Source: Patescibacteria group bacterium (GTDB lineage Bacteria; Patescibacteriota; UBA1384; CAJBMM01). From it: 36,284 bases of DNA. The notes below the pieces were generated by a model, which ran no database searches, was not told the origin of the DNA, and saw only the letters and a program-made list of their open reading frames with translations. Shown one piece after another: positions 12,093 to 35,400 of this stretch; within the stretch, counting starts at the first letter, position 1; every line of letters starts with the position of its first letter. A program made the translations under genes and the position numbers. The DNA lies in NCBI GenBank assembly GCA_041660565.1, contig JBAZWC010000001.1, forward strand, positions 136,197 through 172,480. Direction: 5' to 3'.

Positions 12093-12355
12093 CAAGTTGT
12101 TTCCGATGTGCTAAATTGGCGATTGTAACTTTACAACTTGACACCGAACCCCAAGTAATGTTAATTACGAGGTAGAAATCTGGCTGGAATTGAGGAGCCA
12201 ATGATATCGTCGTCAAAAGATGTTTAAGCAATATTGTACGCCCTTTAAACAAATGAGCGTCTGCTGTATCCATCTGACGGTATTATTCCTTTTTTCTGGC
12301 TGGATTTGTGCCTCGTTTTTGGTATGTTGTTAACGCAACGCGACGAGTGTTGTAG

Positions 12356-12377
12356 GGGCGGACTCATATGTCCGCCC
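12356..12377. repeat. GC-rich palindromic unit
   Basis: gggcggac-tcatat-gtccgccc is a perfect 8-bp stem in an otherwise AT-rich spacer, 10 nt upstream of the promoter-like site for the first GC-rich cassette. Confidence 0.6.
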
Positions 12378-12386
12378 GTCCAGCGA

Positions 12387-12415
12387 TTGACAAACAAAGA
12401 AATATATGATACAGT
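12387..12415 (+). promoter_or_regulatory. sigma-70-like promoter candidate for GC-rich cassette 1
   Basis: TTGACA (12387-12392), 17-nt spacer, TACAGT (12410-12415) preceded by TGa (extended -10). This implies a ~160-nt leader. Confidence 0.4.
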
Positions 12416-12576
12416 AAATGGTTGTTAATGGTTAATTGTTAAAAGTTGACTGTTATCCAGTACCTTAATTAACTTACTTGGGATTCTGGCAGGAGAATAA
12501 GGCCGCACTTTGTGGTCTTTAATCCTGTCAGAAAAACTCGCCCCAACGCGGGGCAAATACCTTGGAGGATACTTCG

Positions 12577-13671
12577 ATGAAGGGTAAGTGGCTGGTGTTC
12601 GCCGTGGTGGCGTTGTTTGCCACCACTTCGTCGTTCGCTCAACTGTCGGTTGGGGGCGTCATAACCTCCACCGACAAGTCGCACAACATGAGTGTCATGT
12701 CCTCGCTGGTGGTTTCGGCCACCAACCCGGGGACAGATGAGGTGCTTGGGACCGTGAATAACGGTACCCCGATCGCCACGTCTTTCGTCGATTTACGCTT
12801 CACCCTGGTGCTCGACAACGTTGAGCTGCGGGGTAGCGTCGACCAGCTTGTCGACGCGATGATCTTCCCTGACGTGATGTCAAAGGATCACTCGCCGATG
12901 GTCCGGACCACAACCCCGTCGTATTCCCAGTTTCAATGGGAGCGGGACAAGACCCAACCGCGAATCTTCCGGTTGACCGTACCGGCTGGCTCATTGCCAG
13001 ACCGAAACGGCTACACCATGAAGTTCAGGGTGTGGGCGGCACAGTCGTCTGTCACGAAGGCCATGGGCGCACGGCTCTGGGGAAATCGCTCGGGTGAGTT
13101 TCTTGAGGCGTCGTTCCACTTCATGATCAAGCGCACGTGTGCGCCGAAGTCTGAATGGGAGATGGCTACTCAGCTGCAGGGGTTCAACCTGCTAATCGAG
13201 CAGCCGTCAGAGGCTTCGGCACCGGCTCGTGATCGGAAGTACGACGAGAAGCATCAGGAGAGGGCAGACCGATCGGACGTCCGTGAGGATGACCGAGAAG
13301 TCGCGCCGGCTCCGGCGACGAAGCCTGTGGTCAAGCAACAGACGGTTAGGGCGTCGATCAGGGTGGTTGACCCCAAGACTGGACAGACGATCGATTACCG
13401 CGGTCGGTTCGCGGTCACCACGACCAGTATCGAGCCGATCGATTGCAAGGAAGGGCCGGGATTTCAGGTTGACGAGACTGCCCCCAAGGGGGTGTGGACC
13501 GGCCACCTGTCACACGGCGTCGCGACGGCCGAGTTTCCCTCAGACCCAGCCAAGGTATGGTTGGTGGCGTGGGTGGAGTCGGCATCTGGTTGGTCGTTGT
13601 CTCGGGCAATTCGTTTGTCGCCCGAGAATGAGAATCCGGAGCTTCGGTTCCGCCTCGGAGGGTCGAAATGA
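12577..13671 (+). CDS. secreted hypothetical protein (GC-rich cassette 1, gene A)
   Basis: ATG at 12577 with GGAGGA 7 nt upstream; the ORF-track TTG at 12562 is probably an extension. Signal peptide MKGKWLVFAVVALFATTSSFA-Q. G/C-dominated third codon positions. No family recognised. Confidence 0.65.
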   Translation: MKGKWLVFAVVALFATTSSFAQLSVGGVITSTDKSHNMSVMSSLVVSATNPGTDEVLGTVNNGTPIATSFVDLRFTLVLDNVELRGSVDQLVDAMIFPDVMSKDHSPMVRTTTPSYSQFQWERDKTQPRIFRLTVPAGSLPDRNGYTMKFRVWAAQSSVTKAMGARLWGNRSGEFLEASFHFMIKRTCAPKSEWEMATQLQGFNLLIEQPSEASAPARDRKYDEKHQERADRSDVREDDREVAPAPATKPVVKQQTVRASIRVVDPKTGQTIDYRGRFAVTTTSIEPIDCKEGPGFQVDETAPKGVWTGHLSHGVATAEFPSDPAKVWLVAWVESASGWSLSRAIRLSPENENPELRFRLGGSK

Positions 13672-14513
13672 AGTTCCTGTGGATTGCCGCTATCCTGCTC
13701 TGCGCCGACATGGCGACAGCGCAGGCGACGTATGATCGCGGTGTGGTCCGGTCGCACCCGGCCCGATCGGCTGGGCTGTCGCCGGACGGGCAGTCGATGA
13801 CGAATTTCGCCAAGGAAGGCATATTCGGCATCATGCTGCGCGACTTCTTCGGTTTCAATGACAAGGATGTCAGCGAAGCCAAGGTCAAAGCCGCAGCGGG
13901 CAATTTCACGCTGTGGCAGCTAGCTCCTGGTAGTCGGTTCGACGACATGTGTGGGGGAACCCCCATCAAGTCGGTCGGACCGGGACGCACGGCGTTCTGG
14001 TTAGAGTACTATCGTCTCGAGGTTAGTTCGGGCAAGGTTGCCCGATTCGTGACGATCTGCGCTAACGGGATCAAGCTGTCCAAGGAAGGCACTCAGATCA
14101 AGCCGCACGCCGTAGTGGTTACTCGGGACGTCCCGCGCGACGTCATTCGAGACGTTCCCGGTGAGAACGTTTACGTGTTCCAGTACGAGGAACGAGTCGT
14201 CGAGGTGCCCGGCCCAGAACGGGTTGAGTACATCGACAGGCCGATTCTCGTTCCGGTGGCACCTCTGTACGGCGAGGGGCCGCGGACGGTAGGGTCGCAC
14301 GTGGTGCAGACCTATCCCGTGGCGTTTGTCGGCTACACGTTCCGATCATCTGATCGGGCGAAATGCCGGCCACAGCCGAGGCCACGGCCAAGGCCAACCC
14401 CGCCGGGCTGTACGCCCGGAGTAATTCCACCCGGGCCACCAATACGGATTGGCCCACCCAACCCCCAAGACCCGAACCAGGGCTTGGGACCGGCTCCTCC
14501 GATACGGAGGTAG
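13668..14513 (+). CDS. secreted hypothetical protein with Pro-rich C-terminus (GC-rich cassette 1, gene B)
   Basis: The ATGA start/stop overlap with gene A indicates translational coupling. Signal peptide MKFLWIAAILLCADMATAQA. C-terminal RPQPRPRPRPTPPGCTPGVIPPGPPIRIGPPNPQDP. Confidence 0.6.
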   Translation: MKFLWIAAILLCADMATAQATYDRGVVRSHPARSAGLSPDGQSMTNFAKEGIFGIMLRDFFGFNDKDVSEAKVKAAAGNFTLWQLAPGSRFDDMCGGTPIKSVGPGRTAFWLEYYRLEVSSGKVARFVTICANGIKLSKEGTQIKPHAVVVTRDVPRDVIRDVPGENVYVFQYEERVVEVPGPERVEYIDRPILVPVAPLYGEGPRTVGSHVVQTYPVAFVGYTFRSSDRAKCRPQPRPRPRPTPPGCTPGVIPPGPPIRIGPPNPQDPNQGLGPAPPIRR

Positions 14514-14522
14514 CGCACACCT

Positions 14523-14550
14523 GTGGGGCGACGGTTCGCCGCCGCCCCAC
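14523..14550 (+). terminator. GC-rich hairpin directly after cassette 1 (no T-run)
   Basis: gtggggcg..gg-ttcg-cc..cgccccac gives 8+2 bp, 10 nt after the stop. The lack of a U-tract makes intrinsic termination uncertain. Confidence 0.4.
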
Positions 14551-14560
14551 ACCAACTAAC

Positions 14561-14590
14561 TTGACAACTTATGATATGTTGTGATATAAT
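14561..14590 (+). promoter_or_regulatory. sigma-70-like promoter candidate for the DUF11 surface-protein operon
   Basis: TTGACA (14561-14566), 18-nt spacer, TGaTATAAT (14582-14590). Confidence 0.5.
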
Positions 14591-14635: not shown

Positions 14636-14694
14636 TATCTCGCATTCAACTATCACAGTTGAAGCGAGGACAACTAGAAAAGAAAAGGAAAGAT

Positions 14695-16635
14695 ATGATG
14701 AATATCATTCAAAAATCCAAAAAATATATCGGATTAGCCGCTATTGCTTTGACAGTAGTTGGTTCATCTTTGGTGTCTCCATTAACTCACGCCGGAAATC
14801 CGGTGTTTAACCAAATGCAAGGGGACAAAGAACAGCTAGTTGGTCGTACTCAGGACCAATCAGCTTACTCTAACCCGGTCACCGCTACTACTCAAGATAG
14901 AGTAACAGTAGCTATTTATATTCATAATAGTGGTGGCTCAACCGCCGCTAACACTGTGGTTAAGTTATCCGAAATTAATGCCGGAAACACTCAATCACAT
15001 CAATTAGTATCGTCTATTAGTGCCGATGGGGTTGATCCTGTAACTGCGACGATCGTAAATGGACAGGTGGTTGGTCATTCAAATTTGACTATCAACTTAG
15101 ATAAATCCGCTACCATGACCTATGTTAACGGTTCTACCGCTTGGTATCCAAACTTTGGTTCGAATCCTAACGAGCCCGGTATCGTAATGCCAGATGGTAT
15201 TATGAGCGCAAATGGCATTAACCTGGGTTCAGTTGAATCTTGTTGGGATCATGTTGGGTACGTGTTGGCTGATTTTGTCTTCACCTCTACTCCAACTGTG
15301 GCCAATTTACAGACCGAAAAATGGGTTGCGGTTTATGGTGGTAATAATCAGTGGGTGAAGGAAAATACCGCTTTAGTTGGCGATCAATTACGTTATCAGA
15401 TTTATTACAATAACAACGGTGGCGTGGTTGCTACTAATGCTACCATTACCGATCGTTTGCCAGATGGTGTTTCTTATCAAGCTAACTCTGTTACAAAACG
15501 AGTTAAAGATGTAAATAACAACGATGTTGATATTGACATCCCCGATAGTCAGCTAACCATTTCTGGCCAAAATATTACCATTCCGGTAGGCAACGTGTTG
15601 CCTGGCCAAGGTAATTCCGGTTATGTTTATTTGCGAGTCAAAGTGAATAACTTGTCTGTTGGTACGCATACCTTAACTAATAACGCCGACTTGGTGGCTA
15701 CTAACGCTGCGATGGTTTCGGCCAGTGCCTTAACCAAGGTAACGGTGTCCGAAACTCCGGTTTCAGACGTGCGTATTCTAAAAGAAGTGGTAAACACCTC
15801 TGTTTCCGGTTCACGATGGGTAAAAGAAAACACCGCCAAACCCGGTGATCATTTGCAGTATCGTTTGACCGTGTACAATCAAGGTAACGCTGGTGCAGAC
15901 AACGTGGTGGTTAAAGATGTTTTGCCACAGCATATTTCTTATGTTGCGGGTTCAACAAAAATTTATAATGTAACTGATCCTAATAACGGTACCACGTTAG
16001 CCGATGGTATTGTGGGCAACGGTATCAACATTGGTACGGTTAACAGTGGCGTGCCTAACGGCAACAAATATATTGTTTTTGACGCTATTGTGTCAACCAA
16101 TATCACAGCCGGTAATCACGATTTAATCAACACTGCTTCAGTATGGTTAAATAGTATGAAAAAGTATGAAGATACTGCCAAAACAACCGTTACTGCCGAA
16201 ACCGGATTACTGTTGACTAAAGAAGTTTGGAGCGCTAACACCGGTCAGTGGGTTGGTCGTCTTGAAAACGTCCGCCCGGGAGACTATGTGTTGTATCGTA
16301 TTCAAGTACGCAATACCGGTTCAACCACGGTAAACAACCCGGTAATTAAAGATATTTTACCGGCCAATGTTGACTATATTTCCGGATCAACGTTAATGGA
16401 CGGCTCTGCCGTTGTGGACGATGCTTGGATTACCGCGGGTACCGGCATTCATATTGCCAACGTGACCGCTGGTAACTTTAAAACCATCACTCTAAAAGTG
16501 AAGGTGCAAAGTTGTCCTCCTGGTGGAACTTACACTCTAACTAACACTGCCACGGTCATTGCCGATGGGTTAGACTTAAAAACCGCTACCGCTGACATAG
16601 TTGTAACTGCTGGTCCTCCAGCACTACCACGGTAA
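14695..16635 (+). CDS. secreted surface protein with DUF11-type (conserved repeat domain) repeats, no sorting signal
   Basis: ATG at 14695 gives signal peptide MMNIIQKSKKYIGLAAIALTVVGSSLVSPLTHA. There are three repeats of the pattern W.KENTA.(P/V)GD.L.Y.I...N.G...A.N..(I/V).D.LP..(V/I)SY..GS. The N-terminal ~190 aa is paralogous to the next gene. Confidence 0.8.
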   Translation: MMNIIQKSKKYIGLAAIALTVVGSSLVSPLTHAGNPVFNQMQGDKEQLVGRTQDQSAYSNPVTATTQDRVTVAIYIHNSGGSTAANTVVKLSEINAGNTQSHQLVSSISADGVDPVTATIVNGQVVGHSNLTINLDKSATMTYVNGSTAWYPNFGSNPNEPGIVMPDGIMSANGINLGSVESCWDHVGYVLADFVFTSTPTVANLQTEKWVAVYGGNNQWVKENTALVGDQLRYQIYYNNNGGVVATNATITDRLPDGVSYQANSVTKRVKDVNNNDVDIDIPDSQLTISGQNITIPVGNVLPGQGNSGYVYLRVKVNNLSVGTHTLTNNADLVATNAAMVSASALTKVTVSETPVSDVRILKEVVNTSVSGSRWVKENTAKPGDHLQYRLTVYNQGNAGADNVVVKDVLPQHISYVAGSTKIYNVTDPNNGTTLADGIVGNGINIGTVNSGVPNGNKYIVFDAIVSTNITAGNHDLINTASVWLNSMKKYEDTAKTTVTAETGLLLTKEVWSANTGQWVGRLENVRPGDYVLYRIQVRNTGSTTVNNPVIKDILPANVDYISGSTLMDGSAVVDDAWITAGTGIHIANVTAGNFKTITLKVKVQSCPPGGTYTLTNTATVIADGLDLKTATADIVVTAGPPALPR

Positions 16636-16643: not shown

Positions 16644-18188
16644 ATGAAAATGAATAAAATGTTAACTAAAATTTTTTCTGCTTTAGTGTTATCGGTGATT
16701 AGTGTAAGCTTAGTAGCCCAAGCCGGTACCCCGGATCCGCTGTTTAATATGAAACAGGGTGATGTTGAGCTGTTAAGCGCCCGAAATATTACTCAAGGTC
16801 AGACTGCGACATCAGATCCAATTAGTGCCGCTTCTACTGATGTGGTTGAAGGTGTGGTTTACTATCACAACGGCGTTCAGGATTCCATGGCCAAAAACGT
16901 GGTGATTAAAGTGGGTGTTGATACTACTTCTGCTAGTCAGAAACATTATCTAACTGCGTCAATTTCGGCGGATAATGCTCCAACCGTTACCGATACGGTA
17001 GTTGGTGGCGTGATTGTGGGTAAAACCGGATTGACTATCAATCTTGATAGCGCGTCTCAAATCTCAATTATTCCTGGTTCAGTACGTTGGTTCAGCGAAG
17101 GTGGACAAACTCCAACTACGCTAATTAACGGTCAAAATGGTTCCGAGCTTTTCTCTGCTACCGGTTTGAAACTGGGTGATATCCAAGGTTGCTGGGCTCA
17201 TGCCGGATACATAATGTTCCAAATGAAATTTGTTAAGTCAAATATTGTGTTGTCAAAGTCCGCTTTCAACAACACTCAAAACGTTGATGCTACCAAAGTA
17301 ACCGCCAAAGCAGGTGATAGCATTACTTATTCTTTGACTACCAAAAATATTGGTACCGCAGATAAGACAAATTACATCGTAAAAGATGGTATCAAAGACG
17401 TGCTAGATTATGCGACAGTGACTTCGGTTTCTGACAACGGCGTAATTAAAGATCAGTCAGCAGAAATTGATCGCAATAATCAAACCATTGTGGAATATCC
17501 GACAGTCAACATTGCTGCGGGTCAAACAATTGTCCGCACATTCACTGTCAGCGTCAAAAATCCGCTACCTACAAATCCAGCAGTCGGCTACGCTTACGAT
17601 AACGTAATGTTTAACCATTATGGTAACGACGTGGTTATCGTGGTCGGACAACCGGTGTTGAATATGTCTATTACCAAAGGTGTACGCAACATCGCTAAAA
17701 ACGAATCCAGCTTTACACCGCTTAACGCCGCCACCCCCGGAGATGGCTTGGAATATTTGATTACGGTGAAGAACACTGGTAACACTCCAACCGCCTCGGT
17801 CCTAAAAGATGTTTTGCCTAACGGTGTTGATTTTGTGGCCGGATCTGTGGTGGTGATGACCAACAATGCTGTCATTACACCAACCGGTGATTTGCTTGGG
17901 TCAGGATTAAACTTGCCTGCGCTTAAGCCAAATCAAGAGTTAACGGTTACGTTCCGCGTTGTTACATCAGCTAATTTAGCCGATGCCACCAACTTGCATA
18001 ACGTCGCAACGGTGATTTTTAACAACAGTCAGTTGCAAGCGCACGCAGATACAGTAATTGTACGCATTCCGGTAGTGCCGACCACTCCGGCAACTACTTT
18101 GCCAACCACCGGCGCTGGCGTAGTTTTGCCGATCGCCACGTTTGTTGGGATGATTGGACTAATTGCGAGATTCAAAATCCGCATCTGA
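16644..18188 (+). CDS. LPXTG-anchored cell-wall surface protein with DUF11-type repeats
   Basis: 514 aa. Signal peptide; the shared N-terminal domain (GTPDPLFNMKQGD..., ISADNAP, GCWAHAGY). C-terminal LPTTG plus a hydrophobic stretch and RFKIRI tail is a sortase sorting signal. Confidence 0.85.
   Translation: MKMNKMLTKIFSALVLSVISVSLVAQAGTPDPLFNMKQGDVELLSARNITQGQTATSDPISAASTDVVEGVVYYHNGVQDSMAKNVVIKVGVDTTSASQKHYLTASISADNAPTVTDTVVGGVIVGKTGLTINLDSASQISIIPGSVRWFSEGGQTPTTLINGQNGSELFSATGLKLGDIQGCWAHAGYIMFQMKFVKSNIVLSKSAFNNTQNVDATKVTAKAGDSITYSLTTKNIGTADKTNYIVKDGIKDVLDYATVTSVSDNGVIKDQSAEIDRNNQTIVEYPTVNIAAGQTIVRTFTVSVKNPLPTNPAVGYAYDNVMFNHYGNDVVIVVGQPVLNMSITKGVRNIAKNESSFTPLNAATPGDGLEYLITVKNTGNTPTASVLKDVLPNGVDFVAGSVVVMTNNAVITPTGDLLGSGLNLPALKPNQELTVTFRVVTSANLADATNLHNVATVIFNNSQLQAHADTVIVRIPVVPTTPATTLPTTGAGVVLPIATFVGMIGLIARFKIRI
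18099..18113 (+). other. LPXTG sortase recognition motif (LPTTG)
   Basis: ttg cca acc acc ggc, followed by AGVVLPIATFVGMIGLIA and then RFKIRI-stop. Confidence 0.85.
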
Positions 18189-20956: not shown

Positions 20957-21838
20957 ATGGCCAAAACCACTAAGAAAACGGCTGCAATTATTGCAGAGCA
21001 AATCTCGGACGAACGACCAGTTGTAGTTGAAGAAACTACTGACGAATCTCTAAATGACGTTTTACAAGAATCCGGTGCCGGTGCAACGGACGCTGAAGTT
21101 GACGTAGAATCTCCAATTGGCGAAGACAAAGCGGTAGAGCAAAGTGCCAAAGATTTGGCCGAAAACGAAGTTGAAGAAGTTGAAGCGGTAGAAGAACCGG
21201 TTAAAAAACAACATTCAGCTAAGGTTGCGACACCACGAAAAGCGCCACTGCATTTCAAAAAATATCGTGAAGCTGTCAAAGACCTAGATCTAACCCAAAG
21301 TTATTCGGTTGAAGGCGCACTAGAGGTTGTCAAAAAAACCTCGATTACCAAGTTTGACGCCACCGTAGAAGCACACATTAAACTATCGGTGACTAACCAG
21401 CGTGGTGTTATTCATTTACCCTCCGGCAGCGGTAAAGAGAAAAAAGTAATGGTAGTTACGGCAGATAATATCGATGCCTTTATTACTCAAGTTGAAGCAG
21501 GGAAAATCGATTTTGATATTGTAGTAGCTATTCCTTCAGTAATGCCAAAATTAGCCAAAACTGCCAAAATATTGGGACCTAAAGGGTTAATGCCTAATCC
21601 GAAATCCGGCACGGTTACCGAAGATGTTGAAAAAGCCAAAGCCGAGTTTGCTTCTGGCCGCGTTGAGTACAAACAAGACAAAGGTGGTGTGGTGCATTTG
21701 GGCATTGGTAAAGTTTCAATGACGCCCGAACAGCTAAAAGGCAACTACTTGGCGCTTGTTTCGGCATTGCCTCAGCCAAAAATTCAATCGATTTATCTAT
21801 CTTCAACCATGGGCCCCGCGGTAAAAGTGTCGCTGTAA
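20957..21838 (+). CDS. rplA: 50S ribosomal protein L1 with a ~95-aa acidic N-terminal extension
   Basis: ATG at 20957 (MAKTTKK); the ORF-track TTG at 20900 is probably an extension. The L1 core starts around HFKKYREAV and includes ILGPKGLMPNPKSGTVT. Confidence 0.9.
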   Translation: MAKTTKKTAAIIAEQISDERPVVVEETTDESLNDVLQESGAGATDAEVDVESPIGEDKAVEQSAKDLAENEVEEVEAVEEPVKKQHSAKVATPRKAPLHFKKYREAVKDLDLTQSYSVEGALEVVKKTSITKFDATVEAHIKLSVTNQRGVIHLPSGSGKEKKVMVVTADNIDAFITQVEAGKIDFDIVVAIPSVMPKLAKTAKILGPKGLMPNPKSGTVTEDVEKAKAEFASGRVEYKQDKGGVVHLGIGKVSMTPEQLKGNYLALVSALPQPKIQSIYLSSTMGPAVKVSL

Positions 21839-21842
21839 TCAT

Positions 21843-21871
21843 CTGTCATTCCCGCGAAGGCGGGAATCCAG
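21843..21871 (+). repeat. TGTCAT-headed palindromic unit
   Basis: ctgtcattcccgcgaaggcgggaatccag, with stem attcccgc / gcgggaat, 5 nt after the rplA stop. Confidence 0.7.
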
Positions 21872-21896
21872 TCTATGAAAAACTAACTCCTATTTC

Positions 21897-22009
21897 GTAG
21901 CCCAGACTTCTTGACCTGCCGTAGCTCGAAGAGCGAAGGAGGTTAGTCTGCTCATTGGTACGCTACCTCCTACGCTAAAGCTTCGGAAGGTCAGGGAAGC
22001 GTGGGCTAC
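21897..22009. repeat. long imperfect hairpin (~45-nt arms)
   Basis: gtagcccagacttcttgacctgccgtagctcgaagagcgaaggaggt is roughly complementary to acctcctacgctaaagcttcggaaggtcagggaagcgtgggctac. Confidence 0.6.
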
Positions 22010-22073
22010 GGACGTTCTTTAATACGAGAATCACAACCGATGTTAGGTGTGTCCACAAAGGAGGGACACAGAA

Positions 22074-22703
22074 ATGGCCTCGCAAACAGCAAGCCCATCA
22101 TGCTACGTGAATCCGCATGAATGGGAAGAGCGCGAAGTGACGGAATGTACCCGCCTATTCAGGTTAACCAACATTCCGGAGTGGGATGGGCTACGAGACC
22201 GCATAAGCAGGTGTCCGGTTTGGGGGACTACTTGCATTGCAGTCCCGCTGTGCATGACACGTCCACAGCTGCTTGAAATGCTGATGATGCTGGGTGTCAA
22301 GATCGCGGGAAATGACCCAGTGGCGGCAGATTGCGAGGGGGAGGATTACCCCCTTCGAGTCGGCACATTCGGGGTCGATCTGCCATGGTTTTTTGCCCGC
22401 CGCGAGTTGGGCGAGCACCCATTTGGTTTTCCACTTGACAGTATGGGTGCCCTTTACCGGTCTATGGGTGCTTACGGTATCGCGCCGGTCGAGTTGGCGC
22501 TCTGGGCAATCGCGCGACACGTCGCTTCTGGCGGTGCATTGCCAACACTACCAACATGGATCGCCGGCCTCAATGTTGTGGGAGGCGGATCGATATTGGC
22601 GCTTGACATGGCCAACGGTCCGTTGAGGATTACCGCCGTTGCACACAACATCCAAGCGTCGAACATTGCCGGCCTGCCATGGTATTTCGCGCCGGCACGG
22701 TGA
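22074..22703 (+). CDS. hypothetical protein, no signal peptide (GC-rich cassette 2)
   Basis: ATG at 22074 with AAGGAGGG at 22058-22065. 209 aa and GC-rich (37/60 G+C hand-counted at 22441-22500). No motif recognised. Several overlapping ORFs in other frames are expected for GC-rich DNA. Confidence 0.55.
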   Translation: MASQTASPSCYVNPHEWEEREVTECTRLFRLTNIPEWDGLRDRISRCPVWGTTCIAVPLCMTRPQLLEMLMMLGVKIAGNDPVAADCEGEDYPLRVGTFGVDLPWFFARRELGEHPFGFPLDSMGALYRSMGAYGIAPVELALWAIARHVASGGALPTLPTWIAGLNVVGGGSILALDMANGPLRITAVAHNIQASNIAGLPWYFAPAR

Positions 22704-22780
22704 GCCAACATCGCGATTCGCACTGGGCGCTTGGGTCAACACGACCCCGGCGCCCGTTTATTTCTCCTCACCTCTCCGAG

Positions 22781-22912
22781 CCGTAGGTCTACGAGCCGGT
22801 GGCCGGCCTACGGCCACCCTCTCCTCTTGGAGGAGAGGGGACAATAGGAATTCCTTCTCCTCTGGAGGAGAAGGTGGAACGCTAAGCGTCCCGTAACCCC
22901 GCTTAGCGGGGT
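22781..22912. repeat. cluster of five short GC-rich palindromic units
   Basis: The units are: ccgtagg...cctacgg (22781-22813); ccctctcctc-ttg-gaggagaggg (22817-22839); ccttctcctc-tg-gaggagaagg (22853-22874); ggaacgctaagcgtccc (22876-22892); ccccgcttagcgggg (22896-22910). The last two are an inverted copy of 1455-1492. Confidence 0.75.
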
Positions 22913-22947
22913 GCCTGTAAGGCGGATGAGGAGGGAATCAAAAATCA

Positions 22948-25543: not shown

Positions 25544-25572
25544 TTGACAAAACGTCTCAGGTATGCTATTAT
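25544..25572 (+). promoter_or_regulatory. sigma-70-like promoter candidate for GC-rich cassette 3
   Basis: TTGACA (25544-25549), 17-nt spacer, TATTAT (25567-25572). Confidence 0.5.
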
Positions 25573-25719: not shown

Positions 25720-26298
25720 ATGAAGTGGCTCACAATGTTGTTCGTCATGGCGGCCGTTGTAATGGCCGCAACAATTCCTGCGTTCGCGCAGGATGATGAT
25801 CGGATCGACGGGCAGCCAAAGGCAGATCAGGTGGGGCAGACGTCCCAGCTGGTCGCGCCACCGGACCAGTCCACCCAGTCGACCGAAACCCTGAAAGGGG
25901 ACAAGGGCGACACCGGCGAGAAGGGCGATCCTGGCGCAACCGGCCCGGCCGGTCAGCCAGGTCATGAGGGCAAGATGGGACCAGCTGGTCCCACTGGTCA
26001 CCCTGGACGTCAGGGTCGTACCGGCCCTCGTGGTCGTGATGGTAAGAACGGCCACGACGGTCGCAATGGCCGGGATGCGGTCGTCAACTACGACGCAATC
26101 GTGGGTCATGTGATGGAGCTTTTGGAGAAGAAGTGGGAAAATCCCAACAACCTCCCCAAGCCGTTGAAGGATGACCACACACTGCTCCAAGTCGTCGGCA
26201 CCACCGCGATTGCGGCCCTGTACTGGAACTGGATCATCGGGATCGCGATGATCATATTCGTTGTAGTCTTTGTTGTTCATATTAAGCGCGGCTGGTAG
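25720..26298 (+). CDS. collagen-like triple-helix-repeat protein with signal peptide and C-terminal TM anchor (GC-rich cassette 3)
   Basis: GGGAGGAG Shine-Dalgarno. Signal peptide MKWLTMLFVMAAVVMAATIPAFA-Q. 20 uninterrupted G-X-Y triplets. C-terminal hydrophobic WNWIIGIAMIIFVVVFVV followed by HIKRGW. Confidence 0.75.
   Translation: MKWLTMLFVMAAVVMAATIPAFAQDDDRIDGQPKADQVGQTSQLVAPPDQSTQSTETLKGDKGDTGEKGDPGATGPAGQPGHEGKMGPAGPTGHPGRQGRTGPRGRDGKNGHDGRNGRDAVVNYDAIVGHVMELLEKKWENPNNLPKPLKDDHTLLQVVGTTAIAALYWNWIIGIAMIIFVVVFVVHIKRGW
25897..26076 (+). repeat. (G-X-Y)20 collagen-like coding repeat
   Basis: GDK GDT GEK GDP GAT GPA GQP GHE GKM GPA GPT GHP GRQ GRT GPR GRD GKN GHD GRN GRD, aa 60-119. Confidence 0.9.
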
Positions 26299-26310
26299 TG
26301 GCGCTTGAGG

Positions 26311-26340
26311 CCCCCGCGGGCAGCTGCTCGCGGGGGTTTC
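26311..26340 (+). terminator. rho-independent terminator after the collagen-like gene
   Basis: cccccgcggg-cagctg-ctcgcggggg gives a 10-bp stem followed by ttt. Confidence 0.7.
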
Positions 26341-26408
26341 GCATGTCCGAAAAAAACATTGCTATCAACAATAAAGTTGTGCCATACTTATACTATAAAG
26401 GAGTAGTT

Positions 26409-26735
26409 ATGGCCAATGTCCAAGATCTAATGGAAAAAGATATCTTTGAACTATTACATATTCCAGATTTGCCGGATGATAAAAAAACTGAAATGCTAAA
26501 CATTATTAACGAAACTATTCAAGCCAGAGTAGTTGCGCGGATTGCTGAAGCAGTATCGGAAGAAGAAGCACAACAATTTTCTGCACTCGCCGAAAAAGAT
26601 GACCAAGAAGCGATGAAAAAATTCTTAACCGATCGTCAAATCAGCTTAGAGCAACTTGCACTAGAAGAAGCGTTAAATTATCGTATTGAATTAGTCGAGA
26701 CATTAGATTTAGCTACAAATTCTAAGGAAAGTTAG
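26409..26735 (+). CDS. small helical acidic hypothetical protein
   Basis: ATG at 26409 with AAAGGAG upstream. The ORF-track start at 26298 would run through the preceding terminator. 108 aa, and the stop lies 1 nt before the ATG of the giant gene. Confidence 0.6.
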   Translation: MANVQDLMEKDIFELLHIPDLPDDKKTEMLNIINETIQARVVARIAEAVSEEEAQQFSALAEKDDQEAMKKFLTDRQISLEQLALEEALNYRIELVETLDLATNSKES

Positions 26736-26736
26736 A

Positions 26737-29700: not shown

Positions 29701-31491
29701 CAATCTACACCTCAGCCAGAAGTTGAACGTAAAAGAATGGAAATACATCTAAGTTTGCCAGACGTGGGTGAGATTAAAAAAGGTGATGAACTTACGATAG
29801 ACAATCCAGTTGTTAGCGATAGTTTTATTCATAATGTATTGGCGCTGCCAACTCTAGTAATCAATGGCAAGAATTGTATTTTATACGATCCTAAACACCC
29901 AGAGGACATTAAACTCGCGAGAGAATATCTGGGGAAGGAAAAAATTAAGATCAAGCTTATATCACAGGATGAAAGAACGGGTACGTTCAAATATATTTTT
30001 CTTGAGCCCGATTCGTCAACTAAAGAAAAAGTAGCGAAAAATGTCGATGATACAGCCGGAACAAACCCTGCTAATGCTGTAGAGGCGCCAGCTGGACAAA
30101 ATTTAACTCGTCATGCAGAAGGTCCAATAAAAATCGAAAGAGAGTCCAACTATACCGGACGGCAAAAAGTGGCGTTTGATCGGGTTATGGCGGTCGAAAA
30201 TATGAGCCCAGAACAAGCCAAGGATTATTATCTTAAAGTGTATCGTCAGGCGGTTAATTTTGAATCCAGTTCAGGAGTCTCAATTCCGAACGAGGATTTG
30301 TTTGCCTTCGGATTAATTTCAGACTTGATTCGTAGCACAGATGAGCCAACCACCGTAGATTTCAATGACGCGATATCTATTCGCGAAAAAGATGCGGCCA
30401 CTATCACGGATATGTCAAAGGAGATTTTAGCCACTAATGATGATCATTACCGACAAATTGGATTGTCTGAACTTGGTCGTCACATTGTCACGTTGATTCC
30501 CAATAACGAAGAACCCCCAGCCGTACCCACGCCAGCTACAGAATCAATTACCACACCAACAGAGCCTGAAGTGGGGGCGCAAGCAGCCGCACCAATTAGC
30601 TCGGCGGCAAAAAAGAGCGCAGAATCTGCCACAGTTGAATCCGAAAGCCAGCGGCTGGAAAATGAAATTGCCAAATTACCTGATGAATTTAAGAGATTTA
30701 TCGAAGGTTTACAAAGTGTTGAGGAACATATTTATAGCAAGGACACAGAATGGCTATGTTCTTCCGATGGCCTAGCACATTTAGACAGATTTGTGTACGC
30801 GCCAGCTCCGTCGCTTGGTAGAGCTATTGGTCATGATGCGTCGGAAATATCACGCTATCTAAGTGGTATTGTACAGTCTCAAGCAGAATTACATAATCAG
30901 TTAGATGCTATCGGGATGCACCCGTTTGATGCTAAGGTGGGTGATGCGTTTAATTCAGACAATTACGATTCACCAGACGAGGAATTTGTATGGATAAGTG
31001 ATGGTCAAGAACGCCATAATCACATTGCTGGCGTATCTAGAATCGGTTACAAGCTAGGTGACAAAGTTGTACGCAAGGCAAGAGTGAAACGATGGATGTA
31101 TCATGAGCCTTCACCAGGTCAATCAGCCGAGCCAACATCTACTGCCACCGAGATTACGGCAGCAAAGACTCCTGGTAGACCAGAGGATGATATAATAATT
31201 GAAGATATTGGTGATGTGACTGAGCGCTTGCAACAATATGATGCGCGTCTAAATCAAGACGATCGATATCAAAGAATGACTGAACCAGAAAAATTGTTTT
31301 GCCGAATCTATCTTGATGCTCGCGGTTTCACCGACGACAATGTGCAATACTCTCTAGACTTAAGAAATACAGACGCAGAATCATTCGATATCGCATTAGA
31401 ATATACGACTAGTATTCTTAATCGAGAGTTTAGCGACAACTTGCGTTATGAATATTATGTAACATTACGCAATTGGCTCACTAAATTATAA
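26737..31491 (+). CDS. giant (1584 aa) membrane-anchored multi-repeat hypothetical protein
   Basis: Uninterrupted ORF with AAGGAAAG upstream. Two adjacent hydrophobic helices (27243-27350). An acidic T/D/E linker, four tandem ~80-92-aa modules, three copies of a ~100-aa helical module and a GrpE-like segment. Confidence 0.85.
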   Translation: MPEGLSAGEPEPQPKVGFRERLKQRFGRTESVDKNLSVEEIREQLNALRSDVMIFDDDGNEITQEHNPAKEAELKQALIQAILKKSKEGELSPEDNDDLVKDLVENGHQSAMADISVSTHGFRNFQKMLDVTGQKSIEVDGEEVNRETKSFILSKIDKLPEYWRRQVKNGIVAGTISAAVIGLLAVTVGAPVGIAAISFGGATLAKGAADKLFRDRLIHKDKDGDGSLAYKIAQDRAGNITEMMELGKNYQAELDPNRKAQILQEILERTKKRESENLKQYESLSRKAAWIEGISGAAGAMVTGALTHSIVMGQEVKQQIAHWAKDGVQIHDNQLVTDPNVGHNVKETADGTWRFILKQADIDKAKHLFGAHWQQYLHGAGQNGPFGQGMSPVAPSHLLPGQEIFHNSKFAEVVINRLAAHEVVSHISTLGTVGAIAVPGAASGLASEMYNNPTSQKSPLSSQHAEASSDTPTETDSDITEDIPIDTDTDGTSGTEPVDTEPEPDKAELDQSGRKNDTIKDSLDPSETIEDKKVDRSDRQQRISDKAEKISRISISEAGSYCQTVYREAYKFARELQRGEGVYDADALTAIGVIMDLVKNGESSTKNSFRFAEKVFSQNDDELRAIASRINDPTLSNESRRNSLSDLVEHIIPLIQISDNQADSGTVEEKESILKEIKNGNEIELPVKDKDGKNLILNEQIVDGLKFKLYNPSATLLEKTKVIWEKYKDKDRAKVKIHSSVPREKVYYYELVDPDAEPATVSSEPVGGAEKTEKSAEPTKLPEFKIENLEALHVNQEIPLTDTERLFIEKDPVGNFIVPEIMINGSRIALDDRRKNHVHHDNKIVVITKIPGTSAGDLLYHGELADAPQKTSEPILSSKGEPVVEPEETPKPVEPTELPKFEADKFEGLHVGQQITLRGKTENLVAKGGEPPLVQVNGTNIKIDNPDKVAVQHGHQIVEVTTVPGNSPEDMYFHAKLVDTPSVLSKLEQSTPQPEVERKRMEIHLSLPDVGEIKKGDELTIDNPVVSDSFIHNVLALPTLVINGKNCILYDPKHPEDIKLAREYLGKEKIKIKLISQDERTGTFKYIFLEPDSSTKEKVAKNVDDTAGTNPANAVEAPAGQNLTRHAEGPIKIERESNYTGRQKVAFDRVMAVENMSPEQAKDYYLKVYRQAVNFESSSGVSIPNEDLFAFGLISDLIRSTDEPTTVDFNDAISIREKDAATITDMSKEILATNDDHYRQIGLSELGRHIVTLIPNNEEPPAVPTPATESITTPTEPEVGAQAAAPISSAAKKSAESATVESESQRLENEIAKLPDEFKRFIEGLQSVEEHIYSKDTEWLCSSDGLAHLDRFVYAPAPSLGRAIGHDASEISRYLSGIVQSQAELHNQLDAIGMHPFDAKVGDAFNSDNYDSPDEEFVWISDGQERHNHIAGVSRIGYKLGDKVVRKARVKRWMYHEPSPGQSAEPTSTATEITAAKTPGRPEDDIIIEDIGDVTERLQQYDARLNQDDRYQRMTEPEKLFCRIYLDARGFTDDNVQYSLDLRNTDAESFDIALEYTTSILNREFSDNLRYEYYVTLRNWLTKL
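28762..30012 (+). repeat. four tandem protein-level repeat modules inside the giant ORF
   Basis: R1 28762-29001, R2 29065-29340, R3 29416-29679, R4 29737-30012. R2 and R3 align clearly: EPTKLPEFKIENLEALHVNQEIPL versus EPTELPKFEADKFEGLHVGQQITL, and INGSRIALDD versus VNGTNIKIDN. All end in an aromatic-rich strand plus (L/E)(V/A/P)D.P or LEPD. Confidence 0.7.
30772..31095 (+). other. GrpE-like segment within the giant ORF
   Basis: LAHLDRFVYAP...LHNQLDAIGMHPFDAKVGDAFNSDNYDS...IAGVSRIGYKLGDKVVRKARVKRW resembles the GrpE C-terminal pattern (G(V/M)..I...G..F(D/N)P..H.A...........(V/I).....GY.L.(D/G)(R/K)V(L/I/V)R.A.V.V). Eye-level similarity only. Confidence 0.4.
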
Positions 31492-31767: not shown

Positions 31768-31771
31768 AATT

Positions 31772-31948: not shown

Positions 31949-32342
31949 GCCAAGAACTCTAGAAGAACCGTCACAGCCGGATGAAATAGTATCATCCGAA
32001 GTGGTTAGTAATCACGTTGCCGAAAAACCGGCTGTCGAGAAAATTACTGACGGTATTTTAGCCGAACCCGGGCAAAAACCGCCAAAAGATGAAATGGCAT
32101 CAGACGGTCCTTCTGAAATTGTGTCTGCAGAAGTGCAACCACCAACACCCAAGGCCCCCCTCGAGACTGTAACTCCCAATACATCCAATCTTCCCAATGA
32201 CCCCTATATGCTAGCAGAAGAAAAAGCAGTTCAACATGAAACATTTAAGCAAATGGAGCACGCTATTCGGGATCGTAAGACCGGGGAAGCATACGAGCTT
32301 GACCAAGCAGTAATCGCAATGCGTCAAGAAGCGGAAAAATAA
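31941..32342 (+). CDS. Pro/Glu-rich, probably disordered hypothetical protein
   Basis: 133 aa. The stop overlaps the ATG of the ATPase gene (TAATG). Confidence 0.5.
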   Translation: MDKPRTLEEPSQPDEIVSSEVVSNHVAEKPAVEKITDGILAEPGQKPPKDEMASDGPSEIVSAEVQPPTPKAPLETVTPNTSNLPNDPYMLAEEKAVQHETFKQMEHAIRDRKTGEAYELDQAVIAMRQEAEK

Positions 32343-34855
32343 TGGACACACGCTATTTTCCAAACGAACCTGTAACAACAACTCAAAGCGCGTGGCCGCT
32401 ATTTTTAGGGTTGTTGCTGCTTGCTTTGGTAATTGCACTGGTCACAATATTGGTGTGGTGGCTAAAACATAAATCAGAGCAGTCTCGTCTGAAACGATCG
32501 CTTGAACTAACGATGTTGCAGGTCAGTTTACCTAGAGACACTAATCCATCCGAAGAAGATGTGCGTCAAGATTTTCGCGAGCTAATTGCTATTGGTGAGC
32601 CGTTGATCGCCAGCTTTCAACACTTATATGATCATTCTCGCAAGTTTGGTAGCGTGCCCCAAGAGCACATTACCTTTGAAATTGCCGCCCACGATCGCGA
32701 AATATTCTTTTATGTTGGCGTTTCTAAACATCTGGTTAGCTTGATTGAAAAACAAATTCACGCTCAATATCCGGATGCGATGATAGAAGAAATTCAAGAT
32801 TACACCATTTTACGCGATAAAAACGCCAAAATTGCCGCCGATCAGCTAAAATTGGCAAAAAGCTTTATCTTGCCCATTCGCACCTATCGAGACCTCGAAT
32901 CCAGCTCACTTAACGTCATCACCAATACCTTGTCAAAACTGGGTGATGATTCCACAGCGGCAATTCAATTTTTAATTCGCCCGAATGATGGCTATTGGCG
33001 CACGCAGGTGATGTTTTGGGCCAAGCAGCTGCAACTTGGTAAAGGATTTAACCCGTATGCCGATACATCGATGCGCCAGTTTTGGAATATTCTAAGCCCG
33101 AATTTGAAAAAATCGGTTATGACCGAAGACGCCAAAGCAGAAGCGGAGCGCCGTCAGTTAACTCCAATGCAAGAAGAGCAACTGAAATTACTAAACAATA
33201 AATCCGGTAAGGTGGGATTTGACGTTCAAATTCGAATTATTGCTACCGCGCCAACTGCACCGGAAGCCAAAACGGTGCTTGAAAACATCTCTTCGTCATT
33301 TGCCCAGTTTACCGATCCTACCGGTAACTCAATTCAGCCAGCGCATTATCCTAATGTAGCTCGGTTGGTGTTGGATTATATTTTGCGCACCTTTACGCCG
33401 GGACGAGTGATGATTTTGAACACCGAAGAAATTACCTCGTTGTTTCATTTTCCAAATCGTCATATTGAAACTCCAAACATCCGCTGGCTTAAAGCCAAAA
33501 AAACCACCCCGCCGCCAAACCTTCCAACCTCGGGTAGGTTGCTGGGCGTATCGCATTTTCGCGGTGAAGATAAACAAGTGTTCATTAAACCAGCGGACCG
33601 CATGCGCCATTTGTACGCGGTGGGTAAGACTGGTGTGGGAAAATCAACCTTGCTGCAAAATATGATTGTAGATGATATCAAAGAAGGTTTGGGAGTGGCG
33701 TATTTGGATCCGCATGGTGACTCAATCGAATACATTATGCGACACATTCCCGAGAATCGAATTAAAGATGTGATTATCTTTGATCCATCCGACACTGCCC
33801 GTCCACTCGGATTAAACTTGTTAGAGTGGAGTACTCCGCAGCAACGAGATTTTTTGGTCCAAGAAGCGGTGCAGATATTTTATAAATTATTTGATCCAAA
33901 CCAAACCGGTATTGTGGGGCCGCAGTTTGAGCATTGGTTGCGTAATGCGGCGTTAACGTTGATGTCCGACCCGAATGGGGGAACGCTGATCGAAATTCCA
34001 CGTTTGTTTGTGGACAAACAGTTTGAAACCCAAGCGTTGCAACACGTTACCGACCCGGTGGTACGCGCGTTTTGGGAACAGCAGATGTCCAAAACCTCCG
34101 ATTTTCATAAATCCGAAATGCTTAACTACTTTACCTCTAAATTTGGTCGTTTTATGACCAACACCATGATTCGCAACATCATCGGTCAGCCCAAAAGCGC
34201 GTTTGATTTTAGGAAGGTGATGGATGAAGGCAAAATTTTGCTGGTTAATTTGTCTAAAGGTAAAGTGGGCGAGGTTAACAGTAATTTGCTCGGTATGATC
34301 TTAGTGTCTAAATTGCAGGTAGCGGCGATGAGTCGGGCTGACGTACCGGAAGATCAGCGCCCGCCGTTTTATCTTTATGTTGATGAATTTCAAAACTTTA
34401 CTACCGACGCCTTTGCGTCCATATTATCCGAGGCACGCAAGTACGGCTTGGCTCTAAGTTTGGCCAACCAATACATCGAGCAGCTAACCGAGCAAATTCG
34501 CAATGCGGTAGTGGGCAATGCCGGTACAATTGTGGCGTTTCGAGTGGGTGCCGCTGATGCCGAGTTTCTGGTCCACGAGTTTCAGCCGCTGGTTGAGGAC
34601 GATCTAATCAATATCGACAAATATAACTTTTACTTAAAACTGTTAATTGATAATCGCGCCGAGCGACCGTTTAATTGCGAAGTTTTGCCACCAGATACCA
34701 CCGGCACGGCTGCGATGGCAGATGCGGTTCGCCACGCATCACGCACCACTTACGGTCAAGACGAAAAAGTAGTTGAAGCTCAAATAATTGAACGATCTAA
34801 AGTAGATCAGATCTCACTAGGTGGCATGGAACAGCCGGTTCCATCTGCCAGGTAA
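32342..34855 (+). CDS. membrane-anchored VirD4/TraD-like (type IV coupling protein-like) P-loop ATPase
   Basis: 837 aa. N-terminal TM helix (WPLFLGLLLLALVIALVTILVWWL), a ~380-aa unknown domain, Walker A GKTGVGKST followed by AYLDPHGD, and Walker B FYLYVDEFQNF. SEARKYGLALSLANQY...GNAGTIVAFRVG is typical of TraD/TraG C-terminal modules. Confidence 0.8.
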   Translation: MDTRYFPNEPVTTTQSAWPLFLGLLLLALVIALVTILVWWLKHKSEQSRLKRSLELTMLQVSLPRDTNPSEEDVRQDFRELIAIGEPLIASFQHLYDHSRKFGSVPQEHITFEIAAHDREIFFYVGVSKHLVSLIEKQIHAQYPDAMIEEIQDYTILRDKNAKIAADQLKLAKSFILPIRTYRDLESSSLNVITNTLSKLGDDSTAAIQFLIRPNDGYWRTQVMFWAKQLQLGKGFNPYADTSMRQFWNILSPNLKKSVMTEDAKAEAERRQLTPMQEEQLKLLNNKSGKVGFDVQIRIIATAPTAPEAKTVLENISSSFAQFTDPTGNSIQPAHYPNVARLVLDYILRTFTPGRVMILNTEEITSLFHFPNRHIETPNIRWLKAKKTTPPPNLPTSGRLLGVSHFRGEDKQVFIKPADRMRHLYAVGKTGVGKSTLLQNMIVDDIKEGLGVAYLDPHGDSIEYIMRHIPENRIKDVIIFDPSDTARPLGLNLLEWSTPQQRDFLVQEAVQIFYKLFDPNQTGIVGPQFEHWLRNAALTLMSDPNGGTLIEIPRLFVDKQFETQALQHVTDPVVRAFWEQQMSKTSDFHKSEMLNYFTSKFGRFMTNTMIRNIIGQPKSAFDFRKVMDEGKILLVNLSKGKVGEVNSNLLGMILVSKLQVAAMSRADVPEDQRPPFYLYVDEFQNFTTDAFASILSEARKYGLALSLANQYIEQLTEQIRNAVVGNAGTIVAFRVGAADAEFLVHEFQPLVEDDLINIDKYNFYLKLLIDNRAERPFNCEVLPPDTTGTAAMADAVRHASRTTYGQDEKVVEAQIIERSKVDQISLGGMEQPVPSAR

Positions 34856-34878
34856 ATTACATATTGTTCACAGGGTGA

Positions 34879-34907
34879 TTGACTCCGGTGCTGTTTTTGA
34901 GTATAAT
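34879..34907 (+). promoter_or_regulatory. sigma-70-like promoter candidate for GC-rich cassette 4
   Basis: TTGACT (34879-34884), 17-nt spacer, TATAAT (34902-34907). Confidence 0.5.
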
Positions 34908-34943
34908 TATGTCAACAACTTATCCATTCACGGGGGTGCTGTG

Positions 34944-35348
34944 ATGCACGATAAGGTTGGCAGAAACCTTGACACTTTCGGGCAGTTCATTGCCCGCGAC
35001 CTGTTTATCCTTGCGGTAGGACTATTTGCTGGGTATGGTTGCACGTTACAACGATTCGACTGGCAGGTTTACGGCATAGCTTTGCTCTTCGAGACGGTCT
35101 GCAGTGTGCTCTACGTTGTCGCAATGGACAGTCACATGGTGATCGTTGGCGCAGAGGATATGGCCAAGGGTTTGGTTCCATGGGGTGGGCCATATGAGCG
35201 TATGTCGCACGAAGTTCCACCGAAACTGTGCAAGCCTCTGTCGTTTGTGCATTGGGTGGGCATTGTTACGTTTGGATGTTGGTTAGTCCAAATGCTGTAC
35301 TGGCTTATCCCGGCGTTCCTACACTGGGCTGTGACTGTACAAGCGTAG
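34944..35348 (+). CDS. small 3-TM membrane hypothetical protein (GC-elevated cassette 4)
   Basis: ATG at 34944 is downstream of the promoter. The ORF-track start at 34821 overlaps the ATPase gene and runs through the promoter. 134 aa with three hydrophobic segments. 31/60 G+C hand-counted at 35041-35100. Confidence 0.55.
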   Translation: MHDKVGRNLDTFGQFIARDLFILAVGLFAGYGCTLQRFDWQVYGIALLFETVCSVLYVVAMDSHMVIVGAEDMAKGLVPWGGPYERMSHEVPPKLCKPLSFVHWVGIVTFGCWLVQMLYWLIPAFLHWAVTVQA

Positions 35349-35365
35349 TTGCGCTAATTCGCTAG

Positions 35366-35400
35366 GCCGGCCGAGAGAATATCCTCGACCGGCTTCAAAT
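35366..35400 (+). terminator. terminator-like hairpin after cassette 4
   Basis: gccgg(c)cgag...ctcg(a)ccggc followed by ttcaaattt. Confidence 0.45.

Follow-up and report, generated by a model that had tools for sequence, protein, structure and literature searches.

GC-rich gene cassettes in an AT-rich Patescibacteria genome probably occupy conserved slots for hypervariable envelope proteins

The stretch of DNA analyzed here (the window) is a 36.3-kb segment of contig JBAZWC010000001.1 from a Patescibacteria group bacterium, with a mean GC content of 0.445, in which four GC-rich blocks interrupt an AT-rich backbone of housekeeping genes. We consider it fairly likely that two of these blocks, at sites 1 and 3, are conserved slots holding hypervariable, swappable cassettes of envelope-protein genes in a small-genome lineage of the candidate phyla radiation (CPR) type. 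What is inherited is the slot itself, together with its gene architecture, its signal peptide and the layout of its transcription unit. Wholesale replacement of the DNA that encodes the interior of the mature proteins is apparent in the sequences of one related pair of genomes, and we infer from it that the cassettes of the window may have been replaced in the same way. Site 2, by comparison with the same spacer in relatives, appears to be a lineage-specific insertion of a different kind.

The blocks were located with a sliding profile of 400 nt at 12.6-14.6 kb (GC 0.57-0.64), 22.0-23.0 kb (0.52-0.60), 25.6-26.4 kb (0.55-0.63) and 34.8-35.4 kb (0.50-0.52). They contain five open reading frames (ORFs), which we call GC1a, GC1b, GC2, the collagen-like gene and GC4; the term GC3 is used throughout for GC content at third codon positions. 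The five ORFs span 0.52-0.62 in GC and 0.59-0.74 in GC3, compared to 0.431 (standard deviation (sd) 0.030, maximum 0.469) and 0.405 (sd 0.051, maximum 0.476), respectively, for 25 backbone genes of the window. These differences correspond to z = 2.9-6.3 for GC and 3.7-6.6 for GC3 (2.9-6.6 overall), GC4 being the weakest, and together with the sliding profile they bear out the claim of a first-pass annotation of this DNA that GC-rich ORFs are dispersed in an AT-rich backbone. At two-fold codons, G/(A+G) reaches 0.76-0.87 in GC1a, GC1b and the collagen-like gene versus 0.33 in the backbone, and C/(C+T) is 0.59-0.74 in all five ORFs versus 0.35. Between one third and three fifths of the GC excess derives from amino-acid composition, the remainder from synonymous codon choice. 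The edges of each block coincide with the coding sequence plus its terminal hairpin, and the flanking DNA falls to GC 0.26-0.36.

The structural description given in the first-pass annotation held up. All five ORFs lie on the + strand between conserved genes (dus|CLIPPER(DUF11), rplA|rplJ, tgt|DUF5663 and ATPase|helix-turn-helix gene), and each has its own Shine-Dalgarno site. Promoter-like sites precede GC1a, the collagen-like gene and GC4, and a stable hairpin follows each of the four cassettes (free energies between -18 and -32 kcal/mol, z between -2.9 and -5.2). Signal-peptide-like N-termini were found in GC1a, GC1b and the collagen-like protein, and transmembrane segments at the C-terminus of the collagen-like protein and in GC4. 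The only named family matched by the five proteins is Pfam Collagen, with PHROGs, NCBIfam and PADLOC giving nothing further. The suggestion that these genes form a surface-remodelling set likewise fits, and four of the five are predicted to be envelope-directed. Coordinates are collected in Table 1.

Table 1. Features of the four GC-rich blocks and their immediate flanks (positions in the window).
Feature	Position	Strand	Remarks
Promoter-like site TTGACA-17-TACAGT	12387..12415	+	10/12 matches; in AT-rich flank, 5' of GC1a/GC1b
GC1a, 364-aa predicted secreted protein, first in slot-1 cassette	12577..13671	+	GC 0.60, GC3 0.74
GC1b, 281-aa predicted secreted protein, Pro-rich tail	13668..14513	+	GC 0.62, GC3 0.71
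Terminator-like hairpin, end of cassette 1	14522..14551	+	-23 kcal/mol, z = -3.3
Perfect promoter of sigma-70 type, TTGACA-18-TATAAT with upstream TG	14561-14590	+	Directly 3' of cassette 1
Two CLIPPER/DUF11 surface proteins	14659-16635, 16644-18188	+	Backbone composition
GC-rich palindromic repeats 5' of GC2	21846..22010	.	GTCATTCCCGCGAAGGCGGGAATCC; 15-nt inverted repeat at 21896/21996
GC2, 209-aa predicted cytoplasmic protein	22074..22703	+	GC 0.58, GC3 0.60; Shine-Dalgarno AAGGAGGG
Hairpin (22724-22756), then GC-rich palindrome cluster	22724..22925	.	-25.4 kcal/mol, z = -5.2
Promoter-like site TTGACA-17-TATTAT	25544..25572	+	11/12 matches; 5' of collagen-like gene
Collagen-like protein, 192 aa, slot-3 cassette	25720..26298	+	GC 0.59, GC3 0.68
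Terminator-like hairpin, end of cassette 3	26307..26340	+	-32 kcal/mol, z = -3.5
Promoter-like site TTGACT-17-TATAAT	34879..34907	+	Read from sequence; 5' of GC4
GC4, 134-aa predicted small membrane protein	34944..35348	+	GC 0.52, GC3 0.59; z = 2.9 and 3.7
Terminator-like hairpin 3' of GC4	35364..35395	+	-18.3 kcal/mol, z = -2.9

Relatives for comparison were the contigs of tgt homologues together with loci retrieved by aligned sequences of the M50B-like membrane protein encoded nearby; these metagenomic or genomic loci carry L-labels (L051, L053 and so on). The nearest tgt in the collections is 60% identical to that of the window, the best homologues range from 51 to 60%, and identity across the syntenic clade is 38-60%. 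About 12 distinct relatives conserve the order dus-(pair)-CLIPPERx2-prfB-M50B-ybaB-pth-rplA-rplJ-rplL-tgt-...-DUF5663-...-VirD4-like ATPase. In each of the 10 relatives with DNA across slot 1, the slot is filled by two consecutive signal-peptide ORFs of 337-444 and 222-340 aa, which frequently overlap or abut like the window pair. The GC content of the slot-1 pair equals or exceeds that of the backbone in 11 of 11 loci and is never lower, with GC3 standing 0.15-0.35 over the backbone in eight of them.

Within the window, the pair consists of GC1a, with the signal peptide MKGKWLVFAVVALFATTSSFA and the Shine-Dalgarno site GGAGGA, and GC1b, whose start overlaps the stop of GC1a (ATGA). In both genes GC is highest at the third codon position, followed by the first, and lowest at the second. 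Lying between the promoter-like site and the hairpin, they are probably transcribed as a unit of their own. In L053 the gene directly 5' of the CLIPPER pair is a positional homologue of GC1b, at 44% identity over 122 aa, compared to 67% for prfB and 73% for rplL. The second genes of slot 1 in L053, L056, L069, L083 and L061 are chained by weak pairwise similarity. The A proteins of L069 and L083, A and B denoting the two members of the pair, are 40% identical versus 50-74% for their backbone genes. These comparisons indicate that the cassettes evolve fast and without recent copying across lineages. No family or homologue of GC1a was found in Pfam, PHROGs, NCBIfam, PADLOC, word-index, PDB sequence or phage tblastn searches, and the PDB sequence search with GC1b was equally empty. 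In word-index searches GC1a and GC1b each retrieved only themselves; the 44% homologue in L053 was missed, so this result means "no close relative". A single-sequence AlphaFold2 model of GC1b was unusable (predicted local distance difference test score, pLDDT, 37.8).

Slot 3 shows a comparable pattern of occupancy. The window gene encodes a signal peptide, about 19 G-X-Y triplets (residues 60-117, matching Pfam Collagen PF01391 at 38.4 bits with a cut-off of 27.2) and a C-terminal transmembrane anchor, and its product is probably a short collagen-like stalk held by the C-terminal helix. PHROG tail-fibre families match this protein solely through the G-X-Y repeat. Between tgt and the DUF5663 gene, signal-peptide counterparts were found in L051, L053, L055, L062, L064, L069 and L139. 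Five of these seven (L051, L053, L055, L069 and L139) combine G-X-Y repeats with a C-terminal anchor, and L062 and L064 have other signal-peptide proteins. The slot-3 genes of relatives have a GC content of 0.57-0.73 versus 0.38-0.49 in their backbones, and in L053, L055 and L139 a further GC-rich gene follows, whose product has an N-terminal transmembrane segment. Across 14 loci, ORFs with high GC3 were richer in hydrophobic N-termini than the others (21/34 vs. 44/198; odds ratio 5.7, Fisher p = 1.3e-5), as predicted with a crude gene caller.

The clearest view of how such a slot changes comes from L065 and L067; no other pair with slot 1 covered is even fairly close. These loci are collinear, with 81-88% nucleotide identity over about 12 kb and flanks that are about 84% identical. 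A single block fails to align, at 5635-7286 in L065 (1652 nt) and 5228-6897 in L067 (1670 nt), and no other unaligned stretch exceeds 401 nt. The block begins some 25 codons into gene A and stops close to where gene B ends. Similarity between the A proteins is confined to residues 1-38, the signal peptide (61% identity), and that between the B proteins to the last 26 residues (65% identity); the interiors are unalignable despite near-equal lengths. The alleles also differ in composition, with GC3 of 0.45/0.34 versus 0.55/0.51, while the backbone stands at 0.31 in both. From these alignments the pair appears as a replacement-type hypervariable island, in which the slot and its ends are kept and the interior is interchangeable.

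We suggest that replacement would most likely proceed via homologous recombination through the conserved ends. Phage or attachment to host cells could drive it by putting exposed structures under pressure to diversify. The logic would be that of replacement-type flexible genomic islands. No differing alleles were observed within L139/L140 or within L080-L084, whose members are 99.5-99.97% identical. In our best reading, the cassettes would be exposed, diversifying components of the envelope; the collagen repeat and the adjacency to LPXTG CLIPPER proteins are further surface-related features.

The GC-richness itself belongs to the cassettes clade-wide and does not mark them as recently imported from a host. 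Their proteins are diverged well past the backbone, so that synonymous sites should be saturated, which makes unameliorated foreign DNA an untenable source for slots 1 and 3; these sites would instead reflect a current equilibrium or recent replacement. There are two candidates for the source of the excess: GC-biased gene conversion (gBGC) where recombination is concentrated, or a pool of cassettes that has a composition of its own. Bacterial genes that recombine have their GC3 raised by gBGC (PMC4450053), and it is plausible that the cassette loci are recombination hot spots. An intrinsic upward force is favored by the finding that cassette GC never lies under that of the backbone (11 of 11 loci). 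A distinct pool is favored by L065 and L067, in which GC3 follows the allele and not the background, and by three lineages that are almost without excess. As for a donor, none of the sampled syntenic backbones is as GC-rich as the cassettes, and word-index, HMMER and phage tblastn searches returned no homologue outside CPR-type genomes.

Several observations weigh against conserved slots with swappable cassettes. Profile iteration joined neither the A nor the B proteins into one family, and the profiles did not expand. The data fit a single family evolving fast as well as they fit non-homologous occupants of one slot. Replacement is seen in one related pair and is extrapolated to a window organism without a close relative in the collections. 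The GC3 excess is small in L056, L065 and L070. Surface exposure is predicted from signal peptides and transmembrane segments. Classical replacement islands, moreover, are usually GC-poor and much larger than these cassettes. Finally, contigs of the Logan assembly (SRR18595301) end at 21868 and resume near 22863, within the short GC-rich palindromes around GC2, and they may come from the same sample as the window, which makes them an independent assembly and not independent data. Breaks of this kind are what a short-k assembler would be expected to produce at repeats and give no sign of a chimera.

Among the alternatives, a purely vertical history is unlikely. The cassettes would never have been exchanged and would have evolved in place very fast under a local GC-raising force, which could be gBGC or selection on mRNA or on a protein composition rich in Gly, Pro, Ala and Arg. 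Cassette GC at or above the backbone in every one of the 11 loci, the known effect of gBGC on recombining bacterial genes, and the share of the excess that is due to amino-acid composition all agree with this view, as does the consistently lower similarity of cassette proteins than of backbone proteins, with no recent cross-lineage copy. However, although only about 16% separates the flanks of L065 from those of L067, the mature regions of A and B cannot be aligned between them and the edges are sharp, for which an implausible rate of point substitution would be required. Furthermore, GC3 differs by 0.10-0.17 between these alleles in the same background, so composition tracks the allele and not the locus. 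Ribosomal-protein genes (GC3 0.34-0.45, on which grounds translational selection was rejected as unlikely) and the CLIPPER genes, whose products are secreted, remain at backbone GC3, so that neither high expression nor secretion alone explains the excess.

A second, quite unlikely reading keeps the dedicated clade-wide envelope-protein slots and adds a locus-restricted GC-biased process that would continually rewrite the mature interior between the conserved signal-peptide end and the conserved tail. Such a process might consist of biased gene conversion at high intensity, or of a targeted mechanism of the error-prone or retro-homing kind. If true, the extreme divergence and the lasting GC excess would have a single mechanism behind them.

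The first-pass annotation had raised, as one possibility, serial acquisition from a GC-rich source, with the host of an epibiotic cell as a candidate. In this model each block would be a recent, independent and unameliorated acquisition between genes. This we regard as very improbable. The strong deviation of composition and codon usage is what such imports would leave behind; GC1a and GC1b had no homologues in word-index searches, and GC2, which is not in the same spacer in 10 relatives, is poor in Lys (0.5%) and rich in Ala and Arg, as in GC-rich proteomes. Nevertheless, sites 1 and 3 hold architecturally equivalent, mostly GC-rich genes across a clade whose tgt is 38-60% identical to that of the window, and GC1b has its positional homologue in L053. 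A leftover donor signature could hardly produce the GC3 if synonymous sites are, at such divergence, long saturated. The cassettes also have no tRNA, integrase or flanking direct repeat. The donor lineage that was to emerge from profile and structure searches did not appear: homologues of GC2 came from CPR-type genomes only (the named ones being Berkelbacteria or an unclassified metagenome-assembled genome, MAG), the GC2 model had no neighbour, and GC1a and GC1b found only themselves. The annotation had also named close relatives with the same genes at native composition as evidence against its reading; counterparts are indeed present, but most of them are GC-rich, so that objection applies only by half.

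An artefact, either of chimeric joins or of chance open frames in GC-rich non-coding DNA, is barely credible: GC-rich DNA does yield long ORFs in several frames, the window has many overlapping ORFs, the Logan contigs break on either side of GC2 and that gene has a flat codon-position GC profile, yet the Logan contigs are 100% identical to the window and cross both junctions of sites 1 and 3 (covering MIP-dus-GC1a-GC1b-CLIPPER-CLIPPER-prfB and rplJ-rplL-tgt-collagen-DUF5663-...), other organisms show this architecture again in assemblies from JGI, ENA, NCBI and Logan, GC1a and GC1b have their highest GC at third positions, the genes carry signal peptides, Shine-Dalgarno sites and the ATGA overlap, the collagen-like gene has a Pfam domain, and GC2 has homologues and a confident fold prediction.

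Site 2 differs from sites 1 and 3. The rplA|rplJ spacer measures 1277 bp in the window versus 280-790 bp in 10 relatives, none of which has a comparable + strand gene there (L051 has a called 68-aa minus-strand ORF). Because the spacer is longer here and holds no comparable gene in those relatives, GC2 is best regarded as an insertion specific to the lineage of the window. The earlier description of four insertions thus stands for GC2 and fails for sites 1 and 3, where the comparison of the same sites revealed ancestral slots (dus|CLIPPER and tgt|DUF5663) that are occupied in relatives. Within GC2, the GC content is nearly equal at the three codon positions. A full HMMER search against 1.84 billion representatives returned seven distant homologues at 28-33% identity, which have in common an ADC(D/E)GE...HHPF motif region; two have a source name, 'Candidatus Berkelbacteria' and 'MAG: bacterium'. 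The alignment supports the start at 22074 (209 aa) over the 149-aa call on record. The AlphaFold2 model of GC2 (pLDDT 78.6, predicted TM-score, pTM, 0.81) has no structural neighbours in PDB or BFVD (best match E = 0.03, TM-score 0.31). Exact look-ups of GC2 (209 and 149 aa), GC4 and the ATPase gave no record, phage tblastn with GC1a and GC2 gave no matches, and viral contigs held no relatives of GC2 or the ATPase.

One of the homologues, P0126, is encoded on another small-genome contig (L136), flanked by an M48 peptidase gene and ligA. Its gene has a GC content of 0.54 versus 0.35-0.43 in the flanking genes, and it is followed by palindromes of the GTCATnCC...GGnATCC type (L136 ~2760-2830), as occur near GC2. 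On this evidence GC2 appears to be a single gene that wanders, from a small family restricted to the CPR, and that landed in an insertion-prone spacer with palindromic repeats. GC-rich repeat families of this palindromic kind, resembling miniature inverted-repeat transposable elements (MITEs), fill intergenic spacers of the window (21846-22010, 22760-22925) and of L139 (3970-4045, 5777-5850, 8133-8199 and 8443-8518), the rplA|rplJ spacer of L139 included. An E-value-based Rfam scan of 21800-23150 gave only chance miRNA-like matches on the palindromes.

Further observations concern the same region. No Rfam L10 leader was found 5' of rplJ in the window (22930-23115), even at E<=1, and an Rfam scan of the loci of seven relatives gave only an L10 leader, in L067 (55 bits). 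Ribosomal protein L1 (20900-21838) has an acidic N-terminal extension of about 100 aa that is common to relatives (309-336 aa). A contig scan with an L1 peptide pattern retrieved Prevotella and Treponema L1 genes at 33-43% identity and was uninformative. Two copies of a palindromic-repeat-like sequence (GTCATTTCGACC...) lie in frame within tgt (24125-25447), at 24718-24844, and translate to ...SFRPNQ...SFRPGE...; they are 72-90% like an intergenic copy at 1366-1439, 3' of ftsW/rodA. Among relatives the length of tgt varies from 390 to 494 aa. The in-frame copies look like an insertion into a housekeeping gene in the style of Rickettsia palindromic elements.

We compared the cassettes to several systems already described. 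In aquatic prokaryotes, replacement flexible genomic islands comprise O-chain, flagellar and cell-wall islands; the mechanism proposed for them is homologous recombination that joins different clonal frames, with an altered spectrum of phage sensitivity as the reward (PMC4033161). The cassettes resemble them in their fixed position (slots 1 and 3 are filled across about 12 syntenic relatives, which is not the case for site 2), in atypical composition, in products predicted to be exposed structures and, as far as the one informative pair (L065/L067) goes, in content that is unrelated between fairly close relatives with conserved flanks. Unlike those glycosylation clusters of 10-100 kb, the cassettes comprise 0.6-2 kb with one or two protein genes; they are GC-rich, not GC-poor, and their break points lie inside genes, with the signal peptide and the C-terminal tail kept.

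Compositionally atypical islands attributed to horizontal transfer have also been predicted in Patescibacteria (PMC12455944), and a composition-based prediction of that type would probably flag the present blocks as horizontally transferred. Deviant GC and codon usage, unknown functions and a location between housekeeping genes are shared features. However, there is no integrase among the window ORFs, no tRNA and no direct repeat bracketing any cassette, slots 1 and 3 are filled in distant relatives, and no outside donor was found. Scl1/Scl2 of Streptococcus, Lcl of Legionella and BclA of Bacillus share the signal peptide and G-X-Y region with the collagen-like protein. The Lcl, SclA and SclB models gave repeat-level matches only (37-43 bits versus full-length NCBIfam cut-offs of 325-500), and unlike Scl the window protein lacks LPXTG and has a C-terminal transmembrane helix, with about 19 triplets in 192 aa. 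For site 2 only, elements of the Rickettsia palindromic or MITE-like type offer a parallel: GC-rich palindromes flank both GC2 and its L136 homologue, with copies in the same spacer of L139 and in frame in tgt. Those elements carry no gene, however, and a tie between the repeats and mobility of GC2 is a candidate only.

Other explanations were tried and rejected. RNA or tRNA genes are not the source of the GC islands, as Rfam (gathering thresholds) and ARAGORN gave no matches in the window, and zero PADLOC matches argue against a defence system. A diversity-generating retroelement (DGR) or an integron was rejected given no reverse transcriptase among the window ORFs, no template/variable repeat pair at the cassettes and no shared flanking sites. 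For a DGR, furthermore, A alone would be depleted at four-fold sites, where we found both A and T depleted.

The neighbouring genes offer additional context. Directly downstream of cassette 1, the second of the two CLIPPER proteins ends in LPTTG followed by a hydrophobic transmembrane tail, a sortase-type anchor signal; no sortase gene was found in the window. CLIPPER corresponds to the isopeptide-bond domain PF01345 (PMC12617251). Between prfB and M50B, relatives encode two to four small proteins with multiple transmembrane segments, whose genes are mildly enriched in GC (0.49-0.58; L051 3260-5124; L139 4240-4830). The same gap in the window has no such genes, and it may be another variable slot. 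Downstream of slot 3, the DUF5663 gene and an adjoining giant acidic protein (26298-31491) have + orientation in four loci (the window, L064, L069 and L139) and are inverted in L051 (14169-17189) and L055 (4767-7957). The giant acidic protein varies in length, from 880-930 aa in L051/L055 to 1584 aa in the window and 1923 aa in L139.

GC4, at site 4, is the weakest of the four islands. Its ORF is open from 34821, and we took the ATG at 34944 as the start. The predicted protein has at least two hydrophobic segments and no family match in Pfam, PHROGs, NCBIfam or PADLOC. The VirD4/TraG-like coupling ATPase upstream (32342-34855; DUF8128/TrwB matches) is 73-74% identical to its relatives, a higher identity than these relatives show for tgt (55-60%) or for ribosomal protein L1 (53-66%). 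The DNA sampled from relatives extends no farther than this ATPase.

When genes of a reduced episymbiont genome stand out by composition, they are routinely taken as recent transfers, possibly from the host. Here the signature persists clade-wide, and composition-based island callers would mislabel swappable cassettes of this kind. Genes that evolve fast and are GC-richer than their AT-leaning genomes provide a test case for distinguishing gBGC from a separate gene pool in bacteria. For the organisms themselves, which are hard to culture, the cassettes are candidates for what determines attachment between cells or susceptibility to phage.

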